A stretch of DNA of 64,000 nucleotides, from positions 582,288-646,287 of the forward strand of contig JAKLJL010000002.1 in assembly GCA_023151185.1 (NCBI GenBank), written 5' to 3'. This stretch comes from Bacteroidota bacterium (GTDB taxonomy: Bacteria > Bacteroidota > JABWAT01). Each line of letters opens with the position of its first letter. The first letter of the stretch is position 1. Position numbers and translations under genes: made by a program. The notes beneath the pieces were generated by a model that saw only the letters and a list, made by a program, of their open reading frames with translations, did not search any database and was not told the DNA's origin. This document shows, in pieces, positions 10,771-31,028 of the stretch.

Positions 10771-10776
10771 TGTAAG

Positions 10777-12622: not shown

Positions 12623-12627
12623 CCTGT

Positions 12628-14193
12628 TCAGAATTTAAAGGAAACACCAAAGGTTATTTGATTTGCTTCCCTGTTAAAACCGGGATAAACGAGATCCTTA
12701 TTATTTACGATAATCCTAATTTCACCGTAAAAATTCAATGTAGTAAAGTGAAAATCGTCAATTCTTAATAAAATATCACTGTAATCGGGCAGTTTCTTCT
12801 GTTTTTGGGGGTCTGTATACCTATTTGTGTGATAGCGGGCACGGGCAGAAATCCTGTTCTTTTGGTTTTCGGTCAGCCAGTCCAAATCCAGACCGGATGT
12901 AACGGCCGGTAAAAAAGGAACTGATTTGATTTTTCCAAAGAAAATTTCCTGACTGCCGTAAAGCCTGAGGACCAGTTCCGGGTTTAGATACCAGGAACAG
13001 GAAAGCGAAGCCTGGTGCGACGAAACCGTTACCCACTGTGTTGTCCCGGTTGTATCCGGATACAATCTGTCCTCTGATTCATGGTACAGAGTTCCCAATT
13101 TGACTATCCAGTGATCGGATGGAATCCATTCCAGAATATATTCAGCACGGTTGGTCTGATGGAGATTCAACGAGAAAGTTTTTCCGGGGTTAACCCAGAA
13201 AAATCCACCCGTGTAAAATTCTGGTGCCGGTAAAGACTGATAAAGCGTCCACTCCAGTTTATGGTGGAAATGACGGGTGTGCCCGAAGAGTTTTGCACTT
13301 CCCGAGGGCAGGTGGCGGATTGCCCCTGCATCATTGCGGTGAAAATAACCGCCCGCAACTTCAAGTGAGAACACCTCATTCCCTGCCTGAAAACCGGTTT
13401 CCGCCTTTCCTGCTCTGGAATCCGAACCTGACCGACCAGTTCCCTGCCAGCCTTCAACCCGGCTGATCCAGTATAAAAAAGATAAATCGAACCGGCTTTC
13501 AGCCAAAAGGCCTGCCGATCCACCCGAATTCTCTGACGGCCCCGAAGAAAAATAGTCGTGATAAAATCCATCAATCCGCCAGGAAGTTCCGTCCTCAAGC
13601 GGATCGCTTTTCACCTTTCCTTCAAGGCGGAGGGTTCTGTAAAGGGAGGTATCAATGGTGGACTGATGGGGTTGAATATCGGCATAGTCTAAACCGGCAG
13701 CCAGGGAATAGCTGGTTCCTGATGGGGTCATTCCGGTATTCAGCTGGCTGTTTCCCGTTATGAAGTCACCTCTGAACGTCTGGAGGCGGAAAGTCTTTTC
13801 TGTCTGGCGGTTGCCGAAAACTTCAAGCGTCCTGAACTGCCTGCTGCCAGGCGCCGTGTAAACAGCCCCCAGTTCACCATTATCAGAAAGGTGACTTCCC
13901 AGATAGAGAACCAGTTTGCTTTCCGGTTGAAAGTCGGGTTGACGGTAGGGCAGCAAATCGGACGGACCGTAAAGATCCAGCTCTGGGTTCAGCATGGAAA
14001 CCGGCTTGATTTCAGCCTTCCAGAAGGTAATTGGTACCGGCTTAAACGCCGGGCTGCCGGGTGGCTCCTTTCTGAAAACCTGAACAGAATCCGCTGTGCT
14101 CTGAGCCAGAACAGGTTCTGTCCCCAGCAGGAACCTAGCGGAAAAGAGCCCTGAGATCAGGAGAAACGGTATTTTTCGGGTACTTTTTGTCAT
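12628..14193 (-). CDS. Outer-membrane beta-barrel protein (unknown family)
   Basis: 521 aa. Signal peptide, alternating amphipathic beta-strand pattern, aromatic-rich, C-terminal ...GVSFKF (terminal Phe). Confidence 0.45.
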   Translation of the reverse strand: MTKSTRKIPFLLISGLFSARFLLGTEPVLAQSTADSVQVFRKEPPGSPAFKPVPITFWKAEIKPVSMLNPELDLYGPSDLLPYRQPDFQPESKLVLYLGSHLSDNGELGAVYTAPGSRQFRTLEVFGNRQTEKTFRLQTFRGDFITGNSQLNTGMTPSGTSYSLAAGLDYADIQPHQSTIDTSLYRTLRLEGKVKSDPLEDGTSWRIDGFYHDYFSSGPSENSGGSAGLLAESRFDLSFLYWISRVEGWQGTGRSGSDSRAGKAETGFQAGNEVFSLEVAGGYFHRNDAGAIRHLPSGSAKLFGHTRHFHHKLEWTLYQSLPAPEFYTGGFFWVNPGKTFSLNLHQTNRAEYILEWIPSDHWIVKLGTLYHESEDRLYPDTTGTTQWVTVSSHQASLSCSWYLNPELVLRLYGSQEIFFGKIKSVPFLPAVTSGLDLDWLTENQKNRISARARYHTNRYTDPQKQKKLPDYSDILLRIDDFHFTTLNFYGEIRIIVNNKDLVYPGFNREANQITFGVSFKF

Positions 14194-16891
14194 AGTCCTT
14201 AATCAGTTTCAGTGCGGCCTGTTTTTTCTTTTCCCTGACCAGTGATTGAACAGATAAAATCAGGATCTGATCCTCAATTTCACGGTCTTGCTGCCATTCG
14301 GTTCGATAAATTTCCAATTCTTTCTGGAGGTCTCCCGAGGATAGTTCCATCGCACGGATCTCCATTTTTTGCATGATTATTTTTTTCCGGAGCCGTTCAC
14401 TGAACTGGTTTTTTATCCGGAAATAATAGTCATCAAAGGCATCCCAACCGGCAGATTTCTGTGTAAAAAAAAGATCCTCCAGCAAGAGGGCTTCAAGAGA
14501 AGGAGAGATACTTTCTTCCCGCAAAGCTTCTTTCCTGAAAAACAGGGACAGAAGAGAATCCTTCCTGAAAGAATGGAACCGGTATAATCCCAAGTATAAC
14601 TGGAACCGGTCGCCGGGTGCTACAGGCCTTGATCCGTCATTAATCAGAATCTGAATCCGGGAAGTATCCAGCATTTCATATTCAGCCGGTGAAATCAACG
14701 TTCTGAGGTCAGAAATCCGGTCTGAAGGAACCCGGCCATCGTCCTTCCATTTCTGAAAATCCCGGGCTTTTGAAGTCAAAAAAAGTGACCGGATTACAAC
14801 CGGTTCTATCCATTCTTTATCCGGTGACAGATCCAGGCGCATCAGATTCTCGCCGGTTTTCTCCGGGTCAGGGCTTGCAGAGAGTAATTCCCGGAACAAA
14901 TCGGTTTTGTCGGGATCAATCCCGTTTTTCGCCAAAATCTGCGATTGGGAAGCAGGGATTCCTGAAGCCGCCAGTATAAAACAGCCACCATCACCAAAAT
15001 TTCGGAGAAGGTCCAGCAATGCCGGATTTTTCAGAACCGAAAGCACAGAATCATGGCCCAGAAACCGGATTCCGGTCTGCACGGAATAATGAAATGCCTG
15101 GGGCTCAGAGATCCTGAGCAGATTGCCGGCCAGCAGGTGTGTGGTCAGTTCCTTCCGCTTTCCGGAAAGTGTAGTTTCCACCGGGATAAGCCAGTTTTCG
15201 GCTTTGAACCCAAATTTTGACCGGTAATCCCGGATCCGGTTGTTCAGGTAAGCATAAGAACCTGTTGCGAATTCGGCCAGAATCTGCATCAACTCTACCG
15301 ACTCAGGAAAGAAGTCGGGGCTTAACCGGTTGAGAACCCGCAGGTATCCCAAAGCCAGATCCGGCCGGCCGGCATCCAGGGTCATTTTTGCCGCAGAAAA
15401 CATCATTCTGTTTTTTACTGAGTCGGATGCAGCGTACCGGATTTTTTTATCCAGAAGCGCAAGTCCGGTGCGTTGTTTCCCTGTCCTGAACAGGTTTTCT
15501 GATTGAATCAGATCGATATCATCATAATACCGGACGAAACGGTCACGGTAAAGCCGGATCCGTCTTTCGATGGAATCAGTCCAACCCAGGCGAATACAGG
15601 ATTCAAGCCCGGCCATAAAGGCGGGACCCTCGAGCCGGTGTCCCTTATAATCTGTCAGGAAATAGTCGAATTGCTGAATGGCCTCAGGATACTTTCCGGC
15701 TTTGAAAAGTGCAAAACCAGAATTATAAACCAACCCTGGCCAGGAGGCCTGCTGCCTTTTTTTATTGAATCCGGAAGCCGTCAGATAGGCCCTTCCGGCT
15801 TCCTTCCACCGGTTATTTTCAACGGCCACCTGCGCCACCTGAACCCAGAGTGAATCCAGGCTGAGCCCGGTGTCGGTTTCATCCGTTATCAGACTTAAAT
15901 CCCGTTCAAACAGATCCCAGCGATTCAATTTTAAGGCAGCCCAGAGACGGTGATTCAGGTTATACCGGTTGATTTCGGGTGAAAAGGTAAAAATCTGGAG
16001 ACGGGCCTCCAGAATCTGATCAATTTGCCCGGACTCTTTCCAGAGTTCAACAAAAAGGACTTTTTTAAAGGGTGCCAACCACGAATTGTCGCCGATTCGA
16101 TCAAGAATCTGCATGGCCCTGTTTTTTTGGTTTTCTTTCAGCAGGGCGTAAGCCAGCCTGAACCTGACAAAATCAATCTGGAAAGATCCCGGAAAAAGCT
16201 GGTCATACCGTCCCAGACTGATAATTGCATCCTTCCATAACCCGAGCCGGATGTAGGATTCAGAAACAATCAGAAGGCTCCGTTCCTTTTCATCCTGCCC
16301 AGTAATCAGTGGCTGAAGCAACAGGAGCTGATCAATGGCCCGGGCATACTGGCCAAGATGGTAATCGCAATCAGCAACGGACAGAGAAGCATAATTTCCG
16401 GACGGGGATTCCGGGTAGTGCTCAGAAAATCCCGAAAAAATCTGCCGGGCAGTTTCCCAGTTTCCCAGACGGGCGTGAATAAATCCTCTCAGTAAATAGG
16501 CGTGTTCAGACAGGTCTCCGCCCGGACCTGAACCAGCCGAATCGAGAAGGGAAAGTCCTTCGGTGAACTGATCGTAATCAATATAGGTCCGGGCAAGCCA
16601 GTAACTGATGGTAAAATTCCAGTCGCCGGTCGTTTTCCGGCGCAGTTCTGCCAGAAGTGGCCGTGAGTCCTGCAATCTACCCTGCTGAAGGTAAATTTGG
16701 GAAAGTTCCCACAACCAGACTGTACGTCTGGGGTGAACAGGATAGTGGTTCAGGTCAGCCCGCAATTGATGTTCGCTTTCAGCCCACAAACCGGAAGTAA
16801 AAAGGGGAGAATCAGGCGGGGGTAAAAACTGGGCCTTTCCGGTTCCGGCAAGAACGGTCATCAGAAAGACAAAAACCAGGACATTTTTCAT
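14135..16891 (-). CDS. Large TPR-repeat protein with signal peptide
   Basis: 918 aa. Signal peptide MKNVLVFVFLMTVLAGTGKAQ (no lipobox Cys) and many TPR-like repeats. Confidence 0.5.
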   Translation of the reverse strand: MKNVLVFVFLMTVLAGTGKAQFLPPPDSPLFTSGLWAESEHQLRADLNHYPVHPRRTVWLWELSQIYLQQGRLQDSRPLLAELRRKTTGDWNFTISYWLARTYIDYDQFTEGLSLLDSAGSGPGGDLSEHAYLLRGFIHARLGNWETARQIFSGFSEHYPESPSGNYASLSVADCDYHLGQYARAIDQLLLLQPLITGQDEKERSLLIVSESYIRLGLWKDAIISLGRYDQLFPGSFQIDFVRFRLAYALLKENQKNRAMQILDRIGDNSWLAPFKKVLFVELWKESGQIDQILEARLQIFTFSPEINRYNLNHRLWAALKLNRWDLFERDLSLITDETDTGLSLDSLWVQVAQVAVENNRWKEAGRAYLTASGFNKKRQQASWPGLVYNSGFALFKAGKYPEAIQQFDYFLTDYKGHRLEGPAFMAGLESCIRLGWTDSIERRIRLYRDRFVRYYDDIDLIQSENLFRTGKQRTGLALLDKKIRYAASDSVKNRMMFSAAKMTLDAGRPDLALGYLRVLNRLSPDFFPESVELMQILAEFATGSYAYLNNRIRDYRSKFGFKAENWLIPVETTLSGKRKELTTHLLAGNLLRISEPQAFHYSVQTGIRFLGHDSVLSVLKNPALLDLLRNFGDGGCFILAASGIPASQSQILAKNGIDPDKTDLFRELLSASPDPEKTGENLMRLDLSPDKEWIEPVVIRSLFLTSKARDFQKWKDDGRVPSDRISDLRTLISPAEYEMLDTSRIQILINDGSRPVAPGDRFQLYLGLYRFHSFRKDSLLSLFFRKEALREESISPSLEALLLEDLFFTQKSAGWDAFDDYYFRIKNQFSERLRKKIIMQKMEIRAMELSSGDLQKELEIYRTEWQQDREIEDQILILSVQSLVREKKKQAALKLIKDYDKKYPKNTVSPDLRALFR

Positions 16892-18378
16892 GGGCGGATA
16901 AACACATTGTAGGCAATTATCCCCAGGAAAACGGAAAGAGCAATACTGAAAAAGTTCACCGAGTCGTTATTAAACACCGTGTATCCCTTTACAATTCTGC
17001 CGGGTTCATTGCAGTGAGAGCCTTCCTCTGATTCCCTGCCGCAAATCCGGCAGGCGAATCTGACCTGGAAAGCAGATCCGAGAACGCTGTCAATCAGTGT
17101 TCCGGAAAAACCGGTTAAAGATATTAAAATCCAAAATTGCGCGGTTTTTTCAAAATAATAATCGGTCTGAAAATAAATCAGGGAGGAAATTAACGCGGCG
17201 CCGGCAAGACCGCCAAGGAGACCGGGAATTGAAATCCCGCCAGACCTCCCCTTTTCGATGGGATTAAAGGACAGGATATCAACCGGATTTCTCCGGCCAA
17301 ACAACTGCCCGATTTCAGTGCTCCAGGTATCTGCTGTGGCGGCGGCTACCGCAATAAGGAAAATTGCATAACTCCACGGCCACAGATTATTCATTGCAAC
17401 CAGAAACACCAGCAGCGCAGGTCCACCGTTGGCCCAGACCTGAGTTTGATTTCTTGGAGAACTTAATCCAGTCAATTCTCCCTTTTTCCTTCTGAAATAA
17501 TGGCTGATCAGAGTCAGAACGGAAGACAGAACAAAAAAGACCAGCATAGGAACCGTCCAGGCCCAACCACCCATTCCAAAAAGAATAAGTCCCATGAAAA
17601 ATACAGCCAGACTGCCGGAAAGTGACAAAAATCTGAACTTCCAGCTTATCCAGACAAAAGGAATCAACCCGGCTGCCACCATCCAGAAACGGGTAATATC
17701 AGAAGGGTCGATCAGAATATAATCAAGGAAAAGCGCACTGATAAGGGGAATTCCAAGATTATCGGTTCCGTTTGTCATCAGCAGTTCTGCAAGCGCCACC
17801 ATCAGACCGGTCAACCCTGCAATCTGAAAAAGTTCAAAGTAGGTAACCGGCGGAAGCTGTCCTGAAAACCCGGCAAACAGAATGATAAAGTACCCGGTGA
17901 TCATCATAACCAGAAAACCGTTGACCGATTTTCCTCTAGGCAAATCCTGAAACCGGGAGCCTTTTCCTCCCGGCTTTCCTAAAAAGGAGGCAAATGCATC
18001 GCCAAATCCCAGAATCAGCATGGATGCCTGCATTATGACCGGATCGCGTTCCCAATAGAAAAAACTAAGGACTGCAAAGGCGAGAGGAAAATAAATCACC
18101 CCTCTGGAAGCCTTATTGACAGAAAGAAACGGAAGCCAGGCAGGCCGGACGGAGGCAAGAAAATGAAGAAAAAAAAAGAGTCCGGCAAGCAGGATGACCG
18201 GAAATTTGTCCTGATAAAAATAAGGGGAAACAGCACAGGCCATTCCCCCAAGGATATGCAGATATTTCCGGCTGGTTTCCGGGAAAATCCAGTTTTTGGA
18301 TGCAGTAAAACTGAAAATGGCCTGAAGGAACAGAAAAAAGAGAAAGGTTACACCAAACCAAAACCAGTCAGATTGCAT
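16888..18378 (-). CDS. Fusion protein: CTP-dependent polyprenol/phytol kinase-like (VTE5/dolichol kinase family) N-terminal half + DUF92 (TMEM19/VTE6-like) C-terminal half
   Basis: N-terminal half GFGDAFASFLGKPGG...KSVNGF matches the GDxxAxxxG...KSxEG pattern of the dolichol/phytol kinase family. C-terminal half ATADTWSTEIG matches the DUF92 signature. Polytopic membrane protein. 4-nt overlap with the upstream TPR gene. Confidence 0.5.
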   Translation of the reverse strand: MQSDWFWFGVTFLFFLFLQAIFSFTASKNWIFPETSRKYLHILGGMACAVSPYFYQDKFPVILLAGLFFFLHFLASVRPAWLPFLSVNKASRGVIYFPLAFAVLSFFYWERDPVIMQASMLILGFGDAFASFLGKPGGKGSRFQDLPRGKSVNGFLVMMITGYFIILFAGFSGQLPPVTYFELFQIAGLTGLMVALAELLMTNGTDNLGIPLISALFLDYILIDPSDITRFWMVAAGLIPFVWISWKFRFLSLSGSLAVFFMGLILFGMGGWAWTVPMLVFFVLSSVLTLISHYFRRKKGELTGLSSPRNQTQVWANGGPALLVFLVAMNNLWPWSYAIFLIAVAAATADTWSTEIGQLFGRRNPVDILSFNPIEKGRSGGISIPGLLGGLAGAALISSLIYFQTDYYFEKTAQFWILISLTGFSGTLIDSVLGSAFQVRFACRICGRESEEGSHCNEPGRIVKGYTVFNNDSVNFFSIALSVFLGIIAYNVFIRP

Positions 18379-18382
18379 TCAG

Positions 18383-19324
18383 TCAGATTTTTAAGGTGAA
18401 TTGAAGGGCAGGAACGGAATATCCGGTTCCTGTCGGCAGACTGTTCAAAGATAACTTAACCTGATCGGTATGTAAACGGGCCTGCATGGCAGCATTGACA
18501 GCCGACACAGTATGGTTTACCAGGGTCAGGACGGCAAAAGTACTGGCGAGATTATGCATTTCATTGGCCCTGGTCCGGCTGTCACGGTAAGACCGGAAGG
18601 CCGGTGTCAGAAACTGCATATGACTCATTGGAAGACTGTTGTCATAATCATACCAACCCGGCATGAACTGTTCATACTTCCCGATCAGTTCATAATACTG
18701 CTGGGAATCATAACCGGGCAGGACATGTGAGAATTTAGCTCCGCCACCAAATGTAAATGTCATCTCCCTCTCGAGTGAATTCAATTCAGTCCACCATTCC
18801 CTGTTCCCGGGTGTCATATTGGGGTCTCCGTTGATTTTGTTTTTCAGTGCTACAGCAAGATCTTTTGCTTTCTGATCCTGGCCACCTCCAGAATCCTCGG
18901 CCCAATATATAAGGTAATCGGCATATTTACGGACACTCCACCCTTTAGCAGGGTCGTTGGCAACCTTCTGGTATGCTTTTTCTTTATTTGCGGCATCTTT
19001 GTCGAAATACAGGTAACTGCCAACCAAAACAATCTCTGCAGTAAAAAAGCCGATTGCCGACTTATAGGCTTCTGCATACCACTCACCGGTACCGGGAATG
19101 ACCGCAGAAAAAAAAGCCGCCTTCAGCGGACTTTTCTTTTCATCACTGAAAAAAGCCCAGGCTGAGGGTTGGGAATCCGAAATCCCCAGTTGGCTGTCCA
19201 GAAGCAGATTTCCGTACAGGGGTTGCAGATTCTCACCAGTCCGAGGCTCTGAAAGCGGCTGACCGGATGAGGCAGAAAAGTAAAAAATAAAAACAGAAAA
19301 GGAGAGTAATTTTAAAAAGTCCAT
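18383..19324 (-). CDS. Secreted hypothetical protein
   Basis: 313 aa with a signal peptide and no recognisable motif. Confidence 0.35.
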   Translation of the reverse strand: MDFLKLLSFSVFIFYFSASSGQPLSEPRTGENLQPLYGNLLLDSQLGISDSQPSAWAFFSDEKKSPLKAAFFSAVIPGTGEWYAEAYKSAIGFFTAEIVLVGSYLYFDKDAANKEKAYQKVANDPAKGWSVRKYADYLIYWAEDSGGGQDQKAKDLAVALKNKINGDPNMTPGNREWWTELNSLEREMTFTFGGGAKFSHVLPGYDSQQYYELIGKYEQFMPGWYDYDNSLPMSHMQFLTPAFRSYRDSRTRANEMHNLASTFAVLTLVNHTVSAVNAAMQARLHTDQVKLSLNSLPTGTGYSVPALQFTLKI

Positions 19325-22300
19325 TTTTCGAGTCCAAGATCAAAGTTAAACAACATTCCGAAATGGTATTGCCATTCCTGCCCGTACCGGACGGAATTTT
19401 TCCCGTCCGGTGTTTCAAAACCCTTGGTCAGGGCTACATCAAACCGGTCGAAACCGTAGGTTCCGGAAAAGAATATCCGGATAGGCATCAGATAAAATGA
19501 AGTGGATTCCAGGCGAAGTTCAAAACCTGCATCCCGCCTGAAAGAGGAAAGTGCAGGCATTTTGGCATTCCAGGCTTGCCCGATGTCAGCAAAGACTGAT
19601 CCGTAAAGCCGGTCGAAATAAAACATCTTGAAACTTTTATCCAGTTTTCTGAATATCGGGAACCGGTAGCTGATTTGACCGTGTGCCATTTCAAATCCGC
19701 CGATTGAATAAAACGGATATCCCCGCATCCCGGAAAAACCACCAGCATAATTATAATAGAACGGTTCACCCTTCCCACCTGTAACCCCGGCCCGACGGAT
19801 CCAGAATGATAGCGTGTGGTTGAAAAAGGGTAGTCCGATATGTTCCTTGTACCCGATGGAATATTTAAAAATAGAAAACTTCTTATAATGGAAAGTGAGT
19901 GCTCCATTTTCTACTAAAACCGAATCTAAAAGTTCATTGGCCTCGGCACCGATAGACAGGCTTCCCTCACGGCCTACCGGATTGATACTGGATTCCTTGG
20001 CTGGCTGTAAGTGCTCGAATGAATAATTCAGCAGTGCGCCATGTCCGGTAAAGTAGGTATCTGTAGAGGAGGAAACTTTTGAAATCTCATCGTTCACCTT
20101 AAAGAAAAAGGTGGCAATTTTATTTGAATAAGAGGAGTAAATATACTTCAGTGACAAAAGACCTGCGGGATCGGTTTTTATCTGGGCTCCTGCTTCAACC
20201 TGATTCAGATTATAAATGACATTTGCCCGTGCCGAATCCTCTCCAACTCCGAAATTCACTGCATCTTCTGACTGACGGGAAATATTGAAATAATCAATTG
20301 TCCAGCGAACCGGAAGCAGGCTGCTGAAAATCCCGTCTGCCAGATTCAGGCCCAGAAAAACATCCCGGTCCCACTCAGTAAACTTCCCGTCACCGAATGG
20401 GTTGATCAGGGCACCGGCACTGAACTGAATCCAATCCAGCGGATCAGATGAAAAAGCATAAGTCCCGATTTTTAAATCCCGTGACAAATTGTGCCCCAGC
20501 TTATCCCAGTTTTTTTGGCGGATATTATCCAGATAGCTCCCATCTGATTTGATATAGCCATCAAGCCGAAGTACCGGGTAAAACGATATCGGGTTCTGTG
20601 TTCTCATCCGGTAGGCAAAAACAGGACCGTCAACCGGCTGTATATTGGCATGATTCAGCGGAATTTCCTCAATTCCCTCTGATTCGGGATGGTTAACAAA
20701 CGGATAGGTAACCCTGGGTTTTAAAATTTTGGCGGCCGCAGTAAATACTCTCGCCTTAAATCCGGCTCCGGTAAAAACTGACCCGGCAACCTGCGATCCG
20801 GAAAGGGGCACTCCCTGAAAAACACTTCCTCTTACCTGAGTAATCTGAGTTCTTTTCCCGGTTGTCAAGTCCAGGGTGTAAAGATTGAAAATTCCGGTTT
20901 CATCAGAAGTTATCAGTAATTTTTCAGGAGTAATCCACCGGGGTTCCCGGTTATCACGGCCGGTCCTGAGTAGTTTTTTCCAGGCTTTTGTTCCTGCAGA
21001 ATAAAGTTGAATTTCTCTTCCATGGATCTCGGTAAAATCTACAGCAAGCTGCCCGGATTCCCGTTGAAAATCAAGGGTATGAAATTCAGTTTCTTCATTT
21101 TCGGGCGTGAGGTCAGAGGTTACTGATAGCATTTCCCCGGGTTCCCAGCCTGAAAGTGAAAGACAAACCACCGATTTCAGTGCATTTCTATTGCTGATGG
21201 CATAAATCAGGGAATCCCCATCCCAAACCGGAGAAAAAAGGCGGGCATCCCGGGTTAACCGGATGGCCTCTTCCTTCTGAAAATCCCAGATCCATAAATC
21301 AGAATACCGGGATCCAAGATGATTCGGTGTGCCAGTTTGGCTGTACAGCAGGTAGTTCTTTCCATTCCGGTTGAAAAAACGGATTCTGGCATTGGCATGG
21401 ATTTCTTCAACACGGCCCGTTTCAGTACCGGTCGTATCCATCAGCAAAACCACCGTTTGACCGAAATAATCGGCTTTCTGGTTGGACCGGATAATCAACC
21501 TGCCGGTCGCAGGATCAAAATCATCCACCCAGTTAGAAAATCCGGTTTCGGATAGGATTCGGCCTTCATCAATTTCGGGCTGGATTGGGGCAATCTGAGT
21601 GGCATAATGCGATCTGAGTACAGAAACCCACTCAGAATAGATGACGTCTCCAGGTTTACCGAAGGCATCCTCGAGGGCATCCCCGATCGAAAAAACAGTT
21701 TTCTTTTTCAGGGACAGGTTCAGCCGGTCAACTGCATCAAGTCCATAAGTTTTGCTTAAGTAGGAAACCAGATTGAATCCCTGGTTATAAACCGTCTCAC
21801 CATCAAGGGAGGTTTTGTTGAAACTGACCATTTCGGACCAGGTCAGTAAGGTAGAATCCAGAGTTCTCGCCCGCAGAATCATATCCCGGTGAGCATCCCA
21901 ATAGTCATAGTGAAGCCCGGGAACGTTAAACTGGGCAGTTCCTTCTGCCAGCCAGGCCGGAACCACAATGTTCAGGAACGGAAAAGAAACCAGCCGGTTC
22001 GGATATCCGTAGAGATAATCCGGCCGCCTGACATCTTCATATCCAAAATACTGAAAATAAAAAGCGGGGATCCGTTTCGACCATTTCATCGCCGACTGAA
22101 TCTGAACGATATGGGTAAATTCATGCGAAATGACATCCTCGAGCCATTTATGGTTGCCTCTGAGCGGGAAGTCGAGGGCCGTGGCATAGATTTCAATTTT
22201 ATCATCAAAAAAATAGGCAGCCCCGTTCGAGTAATCGTCGGTATCCTTCAGAATCAGGGTTTGTCTGGCCGGAAAATAATTATAAACCTTGCAGACCGGC

Positions 22301-22503
22301 AGATATACCGAATCGTATACGGCTGCCATTCTTCTCGCCATTTTTTCCATGGGCTCATGATACAAAACAGTTGCATATTTTGATTCCAAAGATTTCCAGG
22401 AGAGGTTTTTATACCCCATCGGGAAAAAAGGCTGGGCAAAAGAAGATCCTGCTGCCATTCCGCATAGAAGAATGACAGCAAAAAGAAAACGGGATCGGAT
22501 CAT
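19312..22503 (-). CDS. Multidomain outer-membrane protein: peptidase-MA-like (HExxH) domain + PD40/TolB-like propeller region + Omp85-type C-terminal beta-barrel
   Basis: 1063 aa. Signal peptide. HEFTH at aa 127-131, followed by WLAEGTAQF (an EGxA third-ligand-like motif). Mid-region repeats resemble PD40. The C-terminus MRGYPFYSIGG...SYRFPIF...FADIGQAW...FELRL...IRIFFSGTYGF...KWTF matches the BamA/Omp85 barrel signature, with a terminal Phe. Confidence 0.5.
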   Translation of the reverse strand: MIRSRFLFAVILLCGMAAGSSFAQPFFPMGYKNLSWKSLESKYATVLYHEPMEKMARRMAAVYDSVYLPVCKVYNYFPARQTLILKDTDDYSNGAAYFFDDKIEIYATALDFPLRGNHKWLEDVISHEFTHIVQIQSAMKWSKRIPAFYFQYFGYEDVRRPDYLYGYPNRLVSFPFLNIVVPAWLAEGTAQFNVPGLHYDYWDAHRDMILRARTLDSTLLTWSEMVSFNKTSLDGETVYNQGFNLVSYLSKTYGLDAVDRLNLSLKKKTVFSIGDALEDAFGKPGDVIYSEWVSVLRSHYATQIAPIQPEIDEGRILSETGFSNWVDDFDPATGRLIIRSNQKADYFGQTVVLLMDTTGTETGRVEEIHANARIRFFNRNGKNYLLYSQTGTPNHLGSRYSDLWIWDFQKEEAIRLTRDARLFSPVWDGDSLIYAISNRNALKSVVCLSLSGWEPGEMLSVTSDLTPENEETEFHTLDFQRESGQLAVDFTEIHGREIQLYSAGTKAWKKLLRTGRDNREPRWITPEKLLITSDETGIFNLYTLDLTTGKRTQITQVRGSVFQGVPLSGSQVAGSVFTGAGFKARVFTAAAKILKPRVTYPFVNHPESEGIEEIPLNHANIQPVDGPVFAYRMRTQNPISFYPVLRLDGYIKSDGSYLDNIRQKNWDKLGHNLSRDLKIGTYAFSSDPLDWIQFSAGALINPFGDGKFTEWDRDVFLGLNLADGIFSSLLPVRWTIDYFNISRQSEDAVNFGVGEDSARANVIYNLNQVEAGAQIKTDPAGLLSLKYIYSSYSNKIATFFFKVNDEISKVSSSTDTYFTGHGALLNYSFEHLQPAKESSINPVGREGSLSIGAEANELLDSVLVENGALTFHYKKFSIFKYSIGYKEHIGLPFFNHTLSFWIRRAGVTGGKGEPFYYNYAGGFSGMRGYPFYSIGGFEMAHGQISYRFPIFRKLDKSFKMFYFDRLYGSVFADIGQAWNAKMPALSSFRRDAGFELRLESTSFYLMPIRIFFSGTYGFDRFDVALTKGFETPDGKNSVRYGQEWQYHFGMLFNFDLGLEKWTF

Positions 22504-22508
22504 GGGTG

Positions 22509-25500
22509 TTACCGGATTAAAACGACTTTTAGAATTTTTGTGAGTGATTTGCCTTCACCCGAAAGGTCAACTGAAGCGAAGTACATCCCCGACTGGGCAG
22601 AACCCGAATTCCAGGTAATTTCAGTTTCAGTATTTTTTTGGACGGAAACTGACAGGTCAGTTACTTTCTGTCCGCCTAAATCGAGAAGTGTAATTTTACC
22701 CGTCCCGGTAAAAGGTACCAATATCCTGAAATGAACAAGTCCGTCTTTACTCGGATTTGGCCAGGAGTAAACCGTTTCTTCGTTTTCAGGCGTTTGGCTG
22801 ACCCAGGATTTCCGGCTGACTGAAGATTTCCCGGCAACCCGTAACGCCTCACCCGGGTTTTGGTCGGTGCCCTGGAAAAATCCGTTTAACAGAACAAGAT
22901 CAACCGAAAGTGAATCAGCCAGAAGCTGGGCAGAAACTACCCGGCCGTTAGCAGAAACCAGTCCGGAGGGATTGATTCCGGCAGATAACGGTGTTTTATT
23001 CGGGTACCCGTGAACCGGTGTTGTATACCAGGTTTGCCCGGATTTTAAAACCAAAACCAGATTTCCGGCAGATTCCAGCATTTGAATCCCGGTGATCTTT
23101 TGGGACATTTCCACCGGAAAACCTTCAAGCTGAAGGTTTCCATAATACCCGGAAACGGATAATGAATCAGAAGAAATGAAGAACTGGTACCGGTCTTCAG
23201 GCCCATTTAAAATCAGATTCCGGTTGGTGGATCCGGTTTTTTCATTAACCAGTTCCAAACTGCCGGGTGCAGAATACCCAACCAAAAATGTTTTGAACTG
23301 ACCATTTTGGGTTTGAATAACAACCTGATTATCCTCCGAAGAGGCAGTCACTGACCGGTAAGGTTCAGAATGCGGCAAAACACCCTCTGCCGACCCCAAT
23401 GACAGCGTCAGTTTATTTCCAAGGATTGAGAACCACTGCCCGTTTTGCTGGAAAAAAATCCGGTCAGTAAATCCTGAAGGATCTGAAAGCTGGCTGTGCG
23501 GGATCAGTTGACCGTCTTTCAACCGGGCAATAAACCAGTTATTATCCGTTTTGCTTTGAACCGGCAGGTAAAAAGAGCCTGAACTGAAAACCAAACTTCC
23601 GCTTAACCTCCAGTCGTCAGAATTCCGGCCGGGCAGAACAGGAATAGTGTAGAGAGCATCTGAGATTTGTCCGTTTAAAAGCTGAATAACCCGGATTCCA
23701 GCCGGGAACTGGGGAATTGCAATAAAAAGGGTGTCTCCTGAAGAAGCCGGGTTTGAAAACCCGGAAACCCATTCTTTTGCAGAAATTGGCCAGGTTCCGG
23801 CTGCTGCTGATCCCTGATAAAGGGAAACAGTCTCCGCATGAACTGCCACTGTCCAGATAGAATCCTGGTGGTAAAAGGATCTGATTTTACCAGTTACTTT
23901 TTCAGGAAGACTCAACAGCTTCCGGGAAATCAGAACCGGATTTGCCGGTGCAGAATAATTGAAAGAAATCTGAATCCCCGTCCCTGCCCGGATAAACCCT
24001 TTTACCTGAATGCCCGTCTGGGCTTGCTTTTCCCAATTTGAAGAAGGAACCGATTCAGCCGAAAATTCACCTTTATAAAGAGGTGAAATATTTCCATCCG
24101 TCCAGTAGTCGAAAATAGTCCCGGCTTCAGATCCGCTGCCCCCGGTAAAGGAACCATAAACCTGGCCGATATCCTGACTTCCGTCAGCCTCCAGAAGAGT
24201 CAGAACACGGGTTTCTTCTTTCGAATTTAATTTTGAAAATTCCCCGGGTGTCATCCCGGAATAAAGGTTTCCGTCATTTATCTTCCAGATCAGCATACCG
24301 CCACGGATCGTATCTTCCTTTTCGTTTATCCCTGCTGGAATAACCCACCAGGGATTGGAAATATCGGTGATAATTCCCTTCAGCAGAGACTGGTCGTACT
24401 CGTAAAATCCGTTAATATCCTTCGAAACCGGGAGGGTTTTTGCTTCCCCCCGGTCAAAATAGGAAATCGTGGTCCCATTTTCTTCCAGATTGGGATTCCG
24501 GTGAAGAGTTTCCAGTAAAAAGTACTTTTTATCGCCAAGATGAATAAAAAAGGGCTGTCCCGGGTTGATTGTTTTCAATTCAGGAAGCGCCGAAATATCC
24601 TTAACTTCGGGGGTAATCCACCCCAGTTGATATTGCTCCCAGGCATTTGGCGGGCTTGGAAAAAAACCGTTGAAATTGAAAATTCCATATCCGTCCATCA
24701 GTCCGAACCGGCCGGTCACCGATGCTCCGGTAGAGGTATTATATAAATCAGGCAACCCAAGAAAATTGCCGAAATTTGCAGTCATAATCCCGTTAATCCC
24801 AAAGGAAATCAGAACCTTTTTCCCGTAACTTTCAACCACCCGGGAAAGCGTTTCAGGAAGGATGGACAGGTTGGATAGTGTTATTCCCGGATAAATTTCA
24901 GCCGGTGAGAACGGAATGGCAGAAGATGGGCTCAGGTAAATAGAAGAGATATCTGCTGGAGTCGGGTCTCCGCCCAGAATTGATCCCCAGTTGATGTCTT
25001 TCCCCATTCCGGCGTGAAAAAGAATAAAATGGGTTTTCTTTTCACCGGAATAAAATGGCCGGATTTCATCCGCAAGCTCTGGTTTAGCAGCAGCCGCGGC
25101 AAGGAAATCTGAAACCAGCCTGGAATAGCCTTCAGCTGCAGTTTGCTTGTAGGCTGAATAGGTTCTCATTTTGCCGGGCAGAACCAGGATTTCTGAAGCA
25201 ACATGCAATTGGGAAAGACTGATTTTTCCGCCGGAAACCCGTTCCCAGTAAGATTTTAGAAATTCAAGGTGCTTTGAAAAATAGGTTTTCTCTCTGGGAT
25301 AGGAATCCAGAAATCCGGTATCAGGTGCGGTAGTTACAAACCGGCCTGTTCCCTCTGTAAAGGGATCCGAATCCTTCCCGTCAACCAGTTCATCCTGAAA
25401 TTCAACCTGAAAGGCAATAACGGAATACTCACCGGAAACAGGAGTTGGGTTCAGCCTGACCGGAAGCTGGGCTGAAACCAGCGAAGAGCAAAACAAAAAC

Positions 25501-25532
25501 AGATAAAAAAAGCTCGGTCTGGCTTTATACAT
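22509..25532 (-). CDS. T9SS CTD cargo protein with M6 (InhA-like) metallopeptidase-like N-terminal domain
   Basis: 1007 aa. Signal peptide. The VIAFQVEFQDE N-terminal strand is typical of M6-domain proteins. The position homologous to HExxHxxGxPDxY reads TANFGNFLGLPDLY (aa 251-264). The C-terminal CTD is YSWPNPSKDGLVHFRILV...ILKVVLIR. Confidence 0.55.
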   Translation of the reverse strand: MYKARPSFFYLFLFCSSLVSAQLPVRLNPTPVSGEYSVIAFQVEFQDELVDGKDSDPFTEGTGRFVTTAPDTGFLDSYPREKTYFSKHLEFLKSYWERVSGGKISLSQLHVASEILVLPGKMRTYSAYKQTAAEGYSRLVSDFLAAAAAKPELADEIRPFYSGEKKTHFILFHAGMGKDINWGSILGGDPTPADISSIYLSPSSAIPFSPAEIYPGITLSNLSILPETLSRVVESYGKKVLISFGINGIMTANFGNFLGLPDLYNTSTGASVTGRFGLMDGYGIFNFNGFFPSPPNAWEQYQLGWITPEVKDISALPELKTINPGQPFFIHLGDKKYFLLETLHRNPNLEENGTTISYFDRGEAKTLPVSKDINGFYEYDQSLLKGIITDISNPWWVIPAGINEKEDTIRGGMLIWKINDGNLYSGMTPGEFSKLNSKEETRVLTLLEADGSQDIGQVYGSFTGGSGSEAGTIFDYWTDGNISPLYKGEFSAESVPSSNWEKQAQTGIQVKGFIRAGTGIQISFNYSAPANPVLISRKLLSLPEKVTGKIRSFYHQDSIWTVAVHAETVSLYQGSAAAGTWPISAKEWVSGFSNPASSGDTLFIAIPQFPAGIRVIQLLNGQISDALYTIPVLPGRNSDDWRLSGSLVFSSGSFYLPVQSKTDNNWFIARLKDGQLIPHSQLSDPSGFTDRIFFQQNGQWFSILGNKLTLSLGSAEGVLPHSEPYRSVTASSEDNQVVIQTQNGQFKTFLVGYSAPGSLELVNEKTGSTNRNLILNGPEDRYQFFISSDSLSVSGYYGNLQLEGFPVEMSQKITGIQMLESAGNLVLVLKSGQTWYTTPVHGYPNKTPLSAGINPSGLVSANGRVVSAQLLADSLSVDLVLLNGFFQGTDQNPGEALRVAGKSSVSRKSWVSQTPENEETVYSWPNPSKDGLVHFRILVPFTGTGKITLLDLGGQKVTDLSVSVQKNTETEITWNSGSAQSGMYFASVDLSGEGKSLTKILKVVLIR

Positions 25533-25545: not shown

Positions 25546-26697
25546 TTACTCTAAAATATTTGAAAGATTCATTCCCAGGGTAACCCGAACTGTACCTGCC
25601 AGCGGATGAGATTCTTCGAAGGTTGAAATATAACTGAAGTCCACATTCAGGAAGGAATAGAGAATTCCCGCACCATAAGTCATGAATTTCCGGTTACCGG
25701 CCCGGCGGTCTTCGTAGAAAAATCCTGCCCTGAGAGATACGTATTCATCATAGACAAATTCACCGCCCAGCATCAGGTTTGCTTTGTTCAGTTCATTGAC
25801 AACTCCATCCTGGTACCAGGCCTTATAGATGGCCTGGTAAACCGGATACTTATGATCCTTGTCTTTGTTGGATACCAATAATTTTGCCATTTCAATATAG
25901 GTATCCAGATAATAGTATTCGTCATTGATCAGCCGGTATGCAAACCCAGTTCTGAATTTTGTAGGAAGCGGATCGGCCTGTGCCTCGTCAATATAAGTCA
26001 TTGAAGGACCGATATTGGTGATACTTGTGCCCCAGCGGAACCGGTCTGAAAGGTCGGCAACTTCATACCAGCTAAAAACTGAAGAATCATCACTGGTTAA
26101 CACTGACGGGACAGGGATTCCAAGCGAAAAACGGGTAGGATGATACTCAAAGGCAAGGTCAATCCCAAAGCCGCTTGCGATTCCCCGACCCTCTTCCTGA
26201 GCAGTACCGAACGGGCTTAACCGTGAATAAATAAACCGGCCACCAGTCCCGATACTCCAACTGTCAGAGACCGGTACACCATAAGAAACTCCAACCGCCA
26301 TTTCCCAGCTTAAAAACCGACCGAGTTCCTGTCCGGTCTGATCTGTCCTTACATTTTCCCCTAAATTTAAAAAGGTAATATGTGCGCCCAGGGACCCCAG
26401 TTCTTCATCCAGCGGGTAAACAAATGCCAGATAATCATAAAACAAATCTCCGGTTAGCTGAGGTAACCAGTTGGAGTGAGTGATACTGACTTTCATTTCC
26501 TGAATGCGGTAAAGTGCTGCCGGATTCCAGAAAACGGTGTTCGGATCCTTACCGGCCATCGCAACACCCCCTTCTCCGAAACCGCTTGACCGGCTGTCTG
26601 GGGCAATTTGCAGGAATGGGACCGCTGTTGTGGTAACCTGTGAAAAAACGGCTGTTGACCAAAGGAAAAAAACGAATAAGGTCAGTTTGGCTTTCAT
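25546..26697 (-). CDS. porV: T9SS outer-membrane protein PorV (LptO)-like, FadL-family beta-barrel
   Basis: 383 aa. Signal peptide. N-terminus VPFLQIAPDSRSSGFGEGGVA...NPAAL fits the PorV/PorQ family pattern. It lies immediately downstream of porU, the conserved porU-porV arrangement. Confidence 0.55.
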   Translation of the reverse strand: MKAKLTLFVFFLWSTAVFSQVTTTAVPFLQIAPDSRSSGFGEGGVAMAGKDPNTVFWNPAALYRIQEMKVSITHSNWLPQLTGDLFYDYLAFVYPLDEELGSLGAHITFLNLGENVRTDQTGQELGRFLSWEMAVGVSYGVPVSDSWSIGTGGRFIYSRLSPFGTAQEEGRGIASGFGIDLAFEYHPTRFSLGIPVPSVLTSDDSSVFSWYEVADLSDRFRWGTSITNIGPSMTYIDEAQADPLPTKFRTGFAYRLINDEYYYLDTYIEMAKLLVSNKDKDHKYPVYQAIYKAWYQDGVVNELNKANLMLGGEFVYDEYVSLRAGFFYEDRRAGNRKFMTYGAGILYSFLNVDFSYISTFEESHPLAGTVRVTLGMNLSNILE

Positions 26698-26730: not shown

Positions 26731-29700
26731 TTAGTTATACTTCATTAATTTTATGATTTCGGTTTTTGTTTTCCCGGATCCGGTTTCTTTAAGGACCAGT
26801 CGGGCCAGATAAATGCCATTTGCAACAGGATCTCCGTCAGAATCCAGCCCATCCCAAACCAGCAGGCCCCCGTTGTTTGTTTCCGTTGGGTGCTGTTTAA
26901 GTGTTCGGATGAGAAGACCGTTAAGTGTATAAATTGACGCTGTTATCTGAACTTTTGCATCGGGTAAATTTTGGTTGTAAAAAAAACGTACCGTTTTCCC
27001 GAACGGGTTTGGATAGGGATACAGGTTGCTGACTGAAAAATCAGTTCCTTCTGTTACAACAAAGCGGATTGTAGATTCTGCACCATTGTTGAAAGAATCC
27101 CAAACCTTTAGTTTGAATTCGTGGGGACCTGCTGAAACTGTACTCAGCGGATACTCAATGGTTCCGGTTGTAAAGTCGTTCAGATTGGCTGTAAAATAAG
27201 GACTCATGTCAATGGCACCCGTAAGATCATTATCGAGAATACCTAAAAGCTGGTGGCCTATCCCAAGCCCGGTAGTATTAATACCGGATGAATCAGAAAT
27301 GACAGCCTTCAGAAAACCGGAATTTGCAACCCGCTGACCATCAGAAAAAGAGGAATCATTGATAAAAAGGGAAACCGAAGGCGGTAAGGTATCGGTAAGA
27401 GCTCCGGTACCACCTGATATGTACTGGATCCGGGGAGAGAGAATTAATCCGGCATCTTTTTCGTTCCATAAAAACCCGGAAACTCTGGCTGGAGACCGGC
27501 TTGGCGTTACGTCGGATGGAACCATAAATTTCATTGAAAACTGACCATCCGAAACAGAAACAAGACCCTTAAAGATATCTGATCCTTCATTTTGATATTC
27601 GGTCACATCTGTCCCTGGTTTTGAAACCCATTCCGGAACCGTAACCGTTACCGGTTCTCCTGCTAGCCGGATTAAGGCAGACCCGGAAAACTGGTCTGCG
27701 TTCCCAGCGGGAAGTTCCGAGAGTCTTCCAGAAAGTCTGCCAACAGACTGAATCTGAAATTGAATCAGGCTATCCTGGGTGAGTTCAGCTTCCTTATTCA
27801 GAAGGCGGCCTCTGCCTTCAGGAATCAGAAGGCGGGTGGCTGGGTCTGCAAGCAGGGAAAATTTATTCACATTTTCATCTGTGTAGAATTTTCCGGTTTT
27901 AACATCAAGTTCAGAAAAATGCTGCTTGGTCAGAGTATAAACTTCGCCAAGTGATAAATTTTTCCCGGTATCATTCTTTTTAAACAGGTTTGAAAACAAA
28001 TAATAATTCAGCGCAAGATTATAAGGACCGTCCAGTCTTCTGTCTGTATAAACGAGCCGCGTGGTGGTAAACATTCCGATTACACCGGTTTCTTTTTGTG
28101 TCACCAGAAGTTCTGCGGCACTTTGCTCATCAGGATCATCATATTTTCCGAAATCACAGGTAGCGGTGATCAGAAACGGAAGTTTTGAGGAATTGGTTAG
28201 TCTCGGAAGGAAGGCTCCGATTTCCAGAATCCGTTCATGAGTCCAGACTTTTGTGTTTCCATGCCCGGAGTAATTAATAACTACACTGCCGGAATTAAAA
28301 TAATTGATCAGGGAATTTGCAGCTTCTGGTTTTCTTCTTCCTTCACTGGTTGTAATGGTCGGGAACGAAACGGAATATAATTTTCTGACCGAAAGGTAGG
28401 GTGGTATGAGTGTAGAAACGACTTCTGCATTGTAGGTGTGCAGATCGTAATCATCACCGCTGGAAGTCAGACCATCATCTGCAACCATGGTGACTTTCAT
28501 CCGCCAGTCCCCTTTTTCTGAATTGAGATCATAGTTGATGAGCTTATCAACCATCTGATCTGCCTCTGCAACCGTTACAACCGGAAGCCGGCCGATACCA
28601 ACCCGGAATTGGCCATCAGAGGTTACCCGGCTGAAATCATCATCCGAGCAAAACGTAGAACGCTGAAGTAAGGATTCCTGACTTTCAAATGTAGGAATTA
28701 GTCCCGGAAAAGATTTCTTTCCGCCAATTTCTTTGAAATCATAGGATGCATCCCCCAGCAGAAGCACATTTTTCAGCACTCCTGACCCTGCAGAATAAAC
28801 CTGCCCGATGAATTTCCGAATAGCCTCCGGATTTGCCTTTCCCCCTGAAAAATGAGTATAGATATCTTCGGTGGTTACAACGGCCCCGTTCCAGTTTTGG
28901 GCAACCCGGTGAGCCAGAAGCCGTTTTGCAGGTAAGGTAAACTGCGGAGGAGTAATTATCACGTAATCAATCCCGGCAGCAAACGCATCCGGAACAGTAG
29001 AGACCCCCAAGCGTTCCCAGCTTAATGATCCGGCGGAAATAACACCGTCTGTTTTGTGTACTGCAAAGAAACGGTTTGCTTTTTCCGGACTCAAAATAGA
29101 CCCGAAACGGATATCACCACCAGAAATTGAAGTCTGGGATACAACTTTGGGAGAAAGCGGATTGTCAAGATTAAACACCAAAATACCAGAATCCCGAAAA
29201 CCGCCTATCCTGAAATTCACCGGGCCACCGGATGAAGGTTGAAAAAAATCGATTTCAGTTTTGGAGGCTAAAAGGGACCTGCTGTACTGCAGGGTGAACC
29301 AATCCAGCCACCCGGTAGCAGTACCATTGCTGACCAGGGCAATTTCAATCGAGGCCCTGTCCTGATTGAGTTTTGAAATCTGTCCGGAAACCGTTCGCTC
29401 ACGGGCAACCTTGTCTTCATAATTAGCCGGATTTGAATAGCCGGTGATAATATCCTTAACAACATACTGGCCGGATTCCAGTATAGATAGTCTTGCAAGA
29501 GATGTCGAAGGGTATTGCGCAAGAACGGAGCCCCTGAACAGTACCGGTGATCCGGTTACATAATCAGGAAGTTTCTGAGTCCAGATCTGGGTGCTGTTTG
29601 CCGAAATTCTGGGTCCGACCCAAAGGGTTCCCGATTTCAGCAGATTCTCAGATTCCGGATTCTCCCACACCATAAACTGAGCTGTACCGGTTTCGGAAAC

Positions 29701-30543
29701 CCCTTCGATGAGAGTCCCTGGAACACTTTCCATTCTTTTTCCGGGCGAAGTCCCAAATCCCAGAAATAAATACTGGTTTTCAGAGTAAATATCATCATAC
29801 CAGGAAAATGCCCGGGAAGTAGAATCAAAATATATTCCCTGCTGAATATCAGAATAGAAATACCAGACCTGAGAGTCACTCCAAACATCCGGTTCGGTAG
29901 TTTCAGAAAACAGGGGAATTTCGACTGTTCCAGGTCCTGACGGCCGGGGGCCTGAACTCGAAAATACCCTTAGATTTTTTGGATTTTCTGTCTTTGAAAA
30001 TCCAAATGAGATCAGATCTGAGGCTGTAAGTTTAAAAATACCGGAGCGCAGCGGTTTCAACCTGACCCAAAGCCCGCTTTCAAACAGAGATTCGGCTGCT
30101 GTTGTTTTCTGAAATGCAATCCTTGAAGATTCCGGCTGCCTTTTCCCGGTGCCGGAAAGAGTAAATTTTGTACAAATAAGAACATCGTTTCCGGAAAACA
30201 CACCAATTTGGCGCCGTTTCCAGAATCGGAAATCAGGCTCGGAAGTGACGGTAACTGCCTGTGGTCTGGTACCGGGATCCGAAATTGAAAAAGAAACAAA
30301 GGACCCCCTTTCGGGAATGACTTCATCAGACGGATCAGACTCAGATCCCACGTAAATAATTTCACCGGAAGGGGAAACCATCAGCCGGGGATTTGACAAT
30401 GTCCAGACAGACTTGTCTCCTGCATCTCTTAGCTTGAAAAGTTTTGGAAGGTCCGGACGGATATCTGCATACCTGAAGTTTTGGGCTGTAAGAAGCCCGG
30501 AAGGCACCAAAAAAAGCAGCAAATAAAACAGGGTTTTAAGCAT
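26731..30543 (-). CDS. porU: T9SS C-terminal signal peptidase/sortase PorU (C25 gingipain-like cysteine peptidase) with its own CTD
   Basis: About 1270 aa from the Met at 30543 (signal peptide MLKTLFYLLLFLVPSGLLTAQ). The ORF track extends to 30699. C25 catalytic His in NYSGHGN and Cys in ITATCDFG. The C-terminal CTD is YPYPNPFGKTVRFFYNQ...IIKLMKYN. Confidence 0.7.
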   Translation of the reverse strand: MLKTLFYLLLFLVPSGLLTAQNFRYADIRPDLPKLFKLRDAGDKSVWTLSNPRLMVSPSGEIIYVGSESDPSDEVIPERGSFVSFSISDPGTRPQAVTVTSEPDFRFWKRRQIGVFSGNDVLICTKFTLSGTGKRQPESSRIAFQKTTAAESLFESGLWVRLKPLRSGIFKLTASDLISFGFSKTENPKNLRVFSSSGPRPSGPGTVEIPLFSETTEPDVWSDSQVWYFYSDIQQGIYFDSTSRAFSWYDDIYSENQYLFLGFGTSPGKRMESVPGTLIEGVSETGTAQFMVWENPESENLLKSGTLWVGPRISANSTQIWTQKLPDYVTGSPVLFRGSVLAQYPSTSLARLSILESGQYVVKDIITGYSNPANYEDKVARERTVSGQISKLNQDRASIEIALVSNGTATGWLDWFTLQYSRSLLASKTEIDFFQPSSGGPVNFRIGGFRDSGILVFNLDNPLSPKVVSQTSISGGDIRFGSILSPEKANRFFAVHKTDGVISAGSLSWERLGVSTVPDAFAAGIDYVIITPPQFTLPAKRLLAHRVAQNWNGAVVTTEDIYTHFSGGKANPEAIRKFIGQVYSAGSGVLKNVLLLGDASYDFKEIGGKKSFPGLIPTFESQESLLQRSTFCSDDDFSRVTSDGQFRVGIGRLPVVTVAEADQMVDKLINYDLNSEKGDWRMKVTMVADDGLTSSGDDYDLHTYNAEVVSTLIPPYLSVRKLYSVSFPTITTSEGRRKPEAANSLINYFNSGSVVINYSGHGNTKVWTHERILEIGAFLPRLTNSSKLPFLITATCDFGKYDDPDEQSAAELLVTQKETGVIGMFTTTRLVYTDRRLDGPYNLALNYYLFSNLFKKNDTGKNLSLGEVYTLTKQHFSELDVKTGKFYTDENVNKFSLLADPATRLLIPEGRGRLLNKEAELTQDSLIQFQIQSVGRLSGRLSELPAGNADQFSGSALIRLAGEPVTVTVPEWVSKPGTDVTEYQNEGSDIFKGLVSVSDGQFSMKFMVPSDVTPSRSPARVSGFLWNEKDAGLILSPRIQYISGGTGALTDTLPPSVSLFINDSSFSDGQRVANSGFLKAVISDSSGINTTGLGIGHQLLGILDNDLTGAIDMSPYFTANLNDFTTGTIEYPLSTVSAGPHEFKLKVWDSFNNGAESTIRFVVTEGTDFSVSNLYPYPNPFGKTVRFFYNQNLPDAKVQITASIYTLNGLLIRTLKQHPTETNNGGLLVWDGLDSDGDPVANGIYLARLVLKETGSGKTKTEIIKLMKYN

Positions 30544-30683
30544 AAAAATTAGGGCTGAATGATGAACTTTAGGTTCAAAATAATCAAAAAATATTACTTC
30601 TTTAGCATTCGGCCGATATGCAGTTTCCCTGTTTTGAATTGGTTCTAAGAAAGTTACGATTCCGGCGAAAGAAAAACAACCTG

Positions 30684-31028
30684 TCAGCCCGGAGGCCACA
30701 AAAATTTGCGCTTTCCAAGGAAATGGGCATGAAGATGAAAAACGGTTTGCCCGGCATCTTCATTGGCATTAAGAACAACCCGGTAGCCGGAATCAGAAAT
30801 TCCGAGTTCTTTGGCAATCCTGGCACCGGTCGCCAGGAGAGACCCGACCAGTTCCGGGTCAGATTCTGCAGCATCAGTTAAATTCCTGAAATGGATTTTA
30901 GGGATGACCAGAAAATGAACTGGCGCCTGAGGGTTAATGTCATTGAAGGCCAGTACAGAATCATCCTCATATACAGGATTTACCGGTATTTCTCCAGAAA
31001 CAAACTTACAAAAAAGACAGTCTGTCAT
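30684..31028 (-). CDS. HIT-family (histidine triad) nucleotide hydrolase/transferase
   Basis: 114 aa. HLHAH histidine-triad motif near the C-terminus, with typical Hint-like length and order. Confidence 0.8.
   Translation of the reverse strand: MTDCLFCKFVSGEIPVNPVYEDDSVLAFNDINPQAPVHFLVIPKIHFRNLTDAAESDPELVGSLLATGARIAKELGISDSGYRVVLNANEDAGQTVFHLHAHFLGKRKFLWPPG

Follow-up and report, generated by a model that had tools for sequence, protein, structure and literature searches.

A predicted inactive relative of the M6 metallopeptidases encoded directly after porU and porV in Ignavibacteria-type Bacteroidota

Results

The M6i gene and its degenerate zinc site

The window analysed here is a stretch of 64,000 nucleotides from a Bacteroidota bacterium (positions 582,288 to 646,287 of contig JAKLJL010000002.1, assembly GCA_023151185.1). 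It carries, directly after the genes for the T9SS (type IX secretion system) sortase PorU and shuttle protein PorV, a gene for a protein of 1007 residues that we refer to as M6i (Table 1). A first-pass annotation of the window had described the product as a probable pseudo-protease, bearing a T9SS C-terminal sorting domain (CTD) and an M6 domain whose zinc motif is replaced, and had stated that no other HExxH occurs in the protein. Each of these statements is borne out below.

Table 1. Coordinates of M6i, its domains and the neighbouring genes within the window. AF2, AlphaFold2; pLDDT, predicted local distance difference test.
Feature	M6i residues	Position	Strand	Remarks
Gene for M6i, M6-like inactivated metalloprotease homologue, 1007 aa		22509..25532	-	open reading frame, stop codon included
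Predicted Sec signal peptide, MYKARPSFFYLFLFCSSLVSA then Q	1-21	25470..25532	-	by inspection
M6 (thuringilysin)-like pseudo-catalytic domain	~31-360	24453..25442	-	
Degenerate zinc motif	T251-Y264	24741..24782	-	reverse complement translates to TANFGNFLGLPDLY
Met-turn methionine, motif GRFGLMDG	M279	24696..24698	-	aligned to near-invariant M of M6 motif SxMSxGSW
Conserved post-catalytic region, invariant motif LEADGSQDIG	361-560	23853..24452	-	high pLDDT
Beta-rich, propeller-like middle region	561-915	22788..23852	-	AF2 all-beta, pLDDT 50-85
Type A T9SS C-terminal sorting domain	916-1007	22512..22787	-	
porV		25546..26697	-	PF19572 106 bits; NF033709 277 bits; NF033710 236.5 bits; 13 bp upstream of M6i
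porU, T9SS sortase (C25 peptidase family), first gene of cluster		26731..30699	-	NF033707 755.9 bits vs cut-off 420
1063-aa protein, intact HEFTH, TolB-like propeller, Omp85-like C-terminal barrel		19312..22503	-	5-bp gap after M6i
313-aa protein, weakly DUF5683-like		18383..19324	-	25.2 bits; overlaps 1063-aa gene

The zinc-binding and catalytic motif of the M6 peptidases, HExxHxxGxxD, is not found in M6i. A252, N253 and N256 sit where His, Glu and His would be expected, so that both histidines and the catalytic glutamate are gone, and a scan of the whole protein found neither HExxH nor HxxEH anywhere. What is retained of the site is G259, D262 at the position of the third zinc ligand, and the methionine of the Met-turn, M279. 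What these positions do in metzincins, and that Asp serves as third ligand in the thuringilysins (M6), has been described (PMC12237041). Since both zinc histidines and the general-base glutamate are replaced, M6i is therefore predicted to be unable to hold a catalytic zinc or to activate water as a metzincin does.

Homology to the M6 peptidases

The curated M6 models match M6i only below threshold (PF05547, 14.3 bits against a cut-off of 22; TIGR03296, 58.8 bits against 110.8), and for this reason homology was tested directly by profile-profile comparison. M6 peptidases were picked from metagenomes by their motif and a sample was verified with Pfam, scoring up to 438 bits on PF05547 and carrying the MAM and VEG domains of InhA. 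An alignment of 29 of these peptidases (A2) was compared with an alignment of 62 sequences of the M6i family (A1); as A2 was selected by motif it offers no independent definition of the M6 consensus, which was taken from the literature. With hhalign the two alignments matched over 267 columns at 99.4 % probability (E 1.8e-21). The segment GINGIMTANFGNFLGLPDLYNT of M6i pairs with the M6 active-site motif, which places A252 and N256 at the positions of the zinc histidines and N253 at that of the general-base glutamate, and M279 pairs with the Met-turn methionine. When the PDB was searched with a sequence profile made from the family alignment, InhA was not among the matches; only FG-GAP lectins and a marginal match to the CTD of PorZ came back, and both profile-profile and fold comparison were thus needed to establish homology. 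The back-translated M6 motif had no match in viral contigs.

The AF2 model of full-length M6i (pLDDT 80.7, and >90 across residues 30-530) has a helix at residues 247-257, the place of the degenerate site. Because Foldseek searches with the full-length model were dominated by beta-propellers, which made up the top matches, residues 23-560 were modelled separately (pLDDT 89.6; predicted template modelling score, pTM, 0.90). M6i has the homologous catalytic-domain fold of the M6 peptidases, and the post-catalytic region, in which E448, A449, G451, I455 and G456 are invariant, falls within the structural match to InhA2. No significant hhalign match was found between residues 360-560 and the VEG or MAM domains of InhA. 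M6i has no pro-segment: its alignment starts at residue 31, against about 130-160 in M6 zymogens, whose catalytic domains were placed from about residues 107-155 onwards, which fits a protein that needs no latency. Taken together, the profile alignment and the structural models lead us to predict that M6i descends from an M6 zinc peptidase of the thuringilysin type and has lost its catalytic activity.

Predicted export

The predicted signal peptide comprises, by inspection, a basic n-region (K3, R5), a hydrophobic core and the residues VSA before the glutamine. AF2 places a helix of low pLDDT at residues 4-19 within it, and the A-Q at its end is also present in the family consensus. The CTD resembles that of PorU only as CTDs in general resemble one another. 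M6i thus combines the Sec signal peptide and type A CTD of a T9SS cargo with PorU and PorV encoded next to it, and from the signal peptide and the CTD it is therefore predicted to reach the cell surface through the T9SS. The predicted cleavage would leave an N-terminal glutamine (Q22, 25467-25469), recalling the 'Q-rule' of the Bacteroidetes, a rule that does not hold throughout the Fibrobacteres-Chlorobi-Bacteroidetes (FCB) group (PMC5837995).

A divergent member of a catalogued family

The NCBIfam equivalog model NF052323.1 (T9SSA_dep_M6i, 'T9SS-dependent M6-like inactivated metalloprotease') matches M6i with 414.8 bits (E 7.7e-124), the better of two matching stretches covering residues 30-557. 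By this match M6i is a divergent and differently annotated member of an already catalogued family, and the pseudo-protease kind is not new, as the NCBI models already call the family inactivated. M6i shares with NF052323 the degenerate motif and M6-like domain within the N-terminal ~530 residues, the type A CTD, the length of ~1000 residues and the place after porU-porV; it differs in the middle ~350 residues, which have neither canonical FG-GAP/VCBS repeats nor calcium-binding motifs. No Pfam match to FG-GAP or VCBS was obtained in this region, its D.[DN].[DN]G motifs number 0 against 1-5 in most canonical members, and an hhalign comparison of the middle region of the M6i clade with the canonical FG-GAP region was not significant (6 % probability). 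To this missing FG-GAP signature we attribute the fact that M6i falls under the 600-bit cut-off of the model. Its nearest relatives, P0003 (449 bits) and P0009 (483 bits), fall under it too, whereas relatives with an FG-GAP/VCBS middle region score 766-866 bits. The whole subclade to which M6i belongs thereby scores too low for the curated threshold, and its proteins carry only a generic annotation as T9SS-sorted; NCBI gives the near-identical MCK6601487.1, for example, no label beyond 'T9SS type A sorting domain-containing protein'.

Conservation of the former active site

In none of ~340 relatives, examined in three sets, is an HExxH present at the site. It is missing there from 120 homologues among the matches listed; 78 of 80 genome loci have the expected degenerate motif, and the remaining two have Glu in place of the motif glycine and still no HExxH; and 144 further representatives of clusters at 50 % identity contain no HExxH anywhere. 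The two members with Glu at the conserved glycine (...LELPDLF) lie at 9875-12946 of locus L071 and 9845-13162 of locus L074, and show that this glycine is not absolutely required. Among the 62 sequences of A1, the columns at 252, 253 and 256 hold A53/G4/S3/N2, S37/N20/T3/C1/M1 and S35/N26/G1, respectively; G259, P261, D262 and L263 are present in 62/62 and M279 in 61/62, and one histidine and a number of acidic residues do not vary at all.

The region around the former site is the most conserved part of M6i. Of the 28 columns that are invariant in the M6-like domain, half fall within the 52 residues 248-299 (odds ratio 6.9, p 8e-6). Ratios of nonsynonymous to synonymous substitution rates (dN/dS), computed against one 88 %-identical orthologue (L202), were 0.137 for the whole gene, 0.070 for the M6-like domain, 0.10 for the post-catalytic region, 0.24 for the beta-rich middle region and 0.036 for the CTD, compared with 0.038 for PorV and 0.083 for the downstream 1063-residue neighbour. 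The family is wide, with 292 clusters at E <= 1e-30 in a library of 1.84 billion proteins and at least 573 matching stretches in a collection of one genome per species, mostly metagenome-assembled genomes (MAGs) labelled Ignavibacteria, Ignavibacteriota or Bacteroidota. Since HExxH is absent from the relatives, dN/dS is low and the family is widespread, the loss of the metal site is ancient and the dead domain is under functional constraint.

The first-pass annotation had proposed that its claim be checked by alignment to M6 peptidases, by the state of the motif in orthologs and by structural modelling. The degenerate site fell on the active-site motif of the M6 peptidases, the motif was degenerate in all relatives examined, and the models showed a helix at the site; no HExxH aligned elsewhere in the protein, and the region did not prove unrelated to the M6 active-site helix.

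The porU-porV-M6i gene cluster

The genes porU, porV, M6i, the 1063-residue gene and the 313-residue gene form a run on the same strand, with gaps of 33, 13 and 5 bp followed by an overlap. Gene order was surveyed in 80 related genome loci, with counts taken over the loci that could be evaluated for each gene. PorV is encoded immediately upstream of M6i in 72/72 loci and PorU upstream in 53/53; the 1063-residue protein follows downstream in 48/53 and the 313-residue protein is found in 43/48. From this order and spacing we predict that porU-porV-M6i is a tight operon with M6i as its third gene, conserved across Ignavibacteria-type Bacteroidota. We believe that this gene order is the added finding of the analysis and the part worth following.

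PorU2 and PorV2 were considered as identities for the PorU and PorV of these loci and rejected, as the canonical types match instead. The window PorV and that of locus L012 (242.5 bits) both score under the NF033710 equivalog cut-off of 250, which seems slightly too strict for these two proteins. The porU reading frame of the window begins with GTG and yields 1322 aa, 52 more than the 1270 aa of the gene as called in public assemblies (loci L001 and L202), and the true start is probably internal to it. In some related genomes (L045, 453-8694; L066, 421-8628; L069, 55-8676) porV-M6i is preceded by a tandem pair of PorU genes, both of the canonical type (NF033707, 696-987 bits).

The family of the 1063-residue neighbour has an invariant HExxH with a downstream Glu and a Peptidase_MA_2 (gluzincin-like) domain in 28/28 sequences, a TolB/PD40 propeller in 26/28 and an Omp85-like barrel in 4/28 (best E 2.6e-8). 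The window protein ends in WTF, and no NCBIfam equivalog was found for it. The dead protease M6i thus has next to it a protein predicted to be a live protease joined to an outer-membrane barrel. Where the HEFTH protein is missing, in five loci (L014, L069, L079, L080 and L081), a PorQ-like partner downstream of M6i was considered and rejected, since the gene there (~12900-14080) encodes a GT2 glycosyltransferase.

Discussion

We predict that M6i is a bacterial member of the pseudo-metzincins, and its comparison with known systems shows both what it has lost and what it has gained. Relative to the InhA peptidases of MEROPS family M6 (B. anthracis InhA2, PDB 4YU5, 4YU6), it has both zinc histidines and the catalytic glutamate replaced, lacks the pro-segment and any MAM or VEG domain detectable by sequence, and has added a beta-rich domain and a T9SS CTD. 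A similar pattern of loss is known from the ADAM pseudopeptidases (ADAM2, 11, 18, 22, 23 and others), in which the zinc histidines and the general-base glutamate are substituted, the Met-turn is kept, and function is exerted through protein-protein binding or scaffolding (PMC11266112). These are eukaryotic membrane proteins of family M12; beyond the shared clan neither evolution nor mechanism ties them to M6i, and the likeness is one of analogy only. The same review of metallo-pseudopeptidases lists examples from M1, M12, M13 and M14, and the term 'immune inhibitor' occurs nowhere in its text.

As a pseudo-protease call our analysis adds little, given that NCBI models already cover the family and describe it as inactivated. 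What it adds is that the porU-porV operon invariably has a gene for a dead protease in third place, in hundreds of species that do not belong to the well-studied Bacteroidia. To our knowledge, nearly all that is understood of T9SS attachment comes from Porphyromonas and Flavobacterium. The position of M6i directly after porU-porV in every evaluable locus suggests that the sorting machinery has in M6i a non-catalytic partner and not just any cargo, and we consider it probable that M6i is, as a whole, a dead M6 descendant exported with a type A CTD to serve as a non-catalytic surface partner of PorU and PorV. Its place of action would be the cell surface, in company with the PorU sortase and the PorV shuttle, and its preserved cleft region and beta-rich domain may serve as binding modules by which, for example, a surface glycolipid or a segment of cargo is kept in place for PorU. 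Alternatively, M6i could be a constant client or scaffold of the PorU-PorV complex. If the reading is true, an extra conserved sortase partner in a sister lineage would show how the attachment step varies, and M6i would be one of the few bacterial pseudo-metzincins whose role in the cell is defined.

A bolder form of this proposal, which we regard as possible though doubtful, is that M6i is no cargo at all but an unrecognised structural subunit of the T9SS sorting/attachment complex in Ignavibacteria-type Bacteroidota. The cleft and the propeller-like domain might then present linker or CTD segments of cargo, or a surface glycolipid, to PorU, and M6i might have the adjacent HExxH/TolB/Omp85 outer-membrane protein as a partner. 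PorZ is a partner of PorU that retains its CTD, contains two propellers and binds anionic lipopolysaccharide (A-LPS) and PorQ. By analogy, we hypothesise that M6i could be the functional counterpart of PorZ, which would then be absent from these genomes. The two proteins are not alike in build, as PorZ (P. gingivalis, PDB 5M11) has two propellers and, unlike M6i, no protease-like domain. The PorZ model NF052228 gave no match on M6i at E up to 0.1, and PorZ was not found among the other large open reading frames within the 64-kb window. A BLAST survey reported that, of the T9SS proteins, Ignavibacterium and Melioribacter have only PorV, SprA and Plug (PMC11705866); as PorU is clear in the Ignavibacteria-labelled MAGs studied here, that survey is incomplete and hints at most weakly at an absence of PorZ and PorQ.

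Several points weigh against a non-catalytic partnership of M6i with PorU and PorV. No publication on the M6i family was found in the literature, and searches on PorU2, PorV2, T9SS pseudopeptidases and the attachment complex of Ignavibacteria likewise turned up nothing relevant. M6i falls short of the family cut-off, and with a middle region that has no detectable FG-GAP homology, function may differ within the NF052323 family. Synteny with porU-porV could reflect co-regulation alone, and D262, other invariant acidic residues or H173 might conceivably bind another metal. The first of these two thoughts leads to the view that M6i is an ordinary T9SS cargo, a binding protein released or kept at the surface, be it an adhesin, a substrate-binding module or a protease decoy, which has no role in secretion and whose position only ensures co-expression. 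We take this to be a real possibility, if not a likely one: M6i is built like a standard cargo, with a signal peptide, a passenger and a type A CTD, proteases or protease-like proteins are common among T9SS cargos, no named T9SS component is homologous to M6i, and its middle region evolves faster and is remodelled between clades, as would be expected of a surface-exposed binding domain. However, cargo repertoires normally differ between species, whereas the position of M6i is fixed in every evaluable locus across hundreds of species, and selection on the region of the dead site is as strong as that on machinery genes such as porV.

The thought of another metal leads instead to an enzyme with a repurposed scaffold and a new site built from retained residues such as D262, H173, D179, D194, E299, E448 and D450. 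The invariance of acidic residues and of a histidine in the 62 aligned sequences, and the strong conservation around the old site, speak for it, yet the Ala/Ser/Gly and Ser/Asn/Thr that ~340 relatives have at the ligand and base positions are unable to substitute for the lost residues. H173-A-G is, moreover, kept in active M6 peptidases (HAGxGEE) and is thus a feature of the scaffold rather than of a new site, and NCBI curators likewise concluded that the family is inactivated; we therefore consider an active M6i improbable. That M6i is a decaying pseudogene or a chance resemblance, with the true active site elsewhere or the region unrelated to M6, could draw on the sub-threshold PF05547 score and the failure of the PDB search to find InhA, but is refuted by the profile-profile alignment, the conserved loss of the motif and the low dN/dS, and we give it next to no credence. 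A non-catalytic surface partner of PorU and PorV is the reading of M6i that we prefer.

Further genes in the window

The same-strand run continues beyond the 313-residue gene, at 12628-18378, with a DUF92 membrane protein, a 918-residue tetratricopeptide repeat (TPR) protein and a 521-residue protein without matches; phmmer detected this extension in loci L002 and L003 only. The TPR protein (14135-16891, - strand) has a weak match to PorW/SprE (NF052312, 41 bits against a cut-off of 250). Elsewhere in the window, two genes for outer-membrane biogenesis encode a BamG-like protein at 34450-35685 (+ strand; 205 bits, below cut-off) and a TamL-like protein at 40571-42820 (- strand; 341 bits, below cut-off), and there is a TMEM260-like O-mannosyltransferase homologue at 51443-54073.
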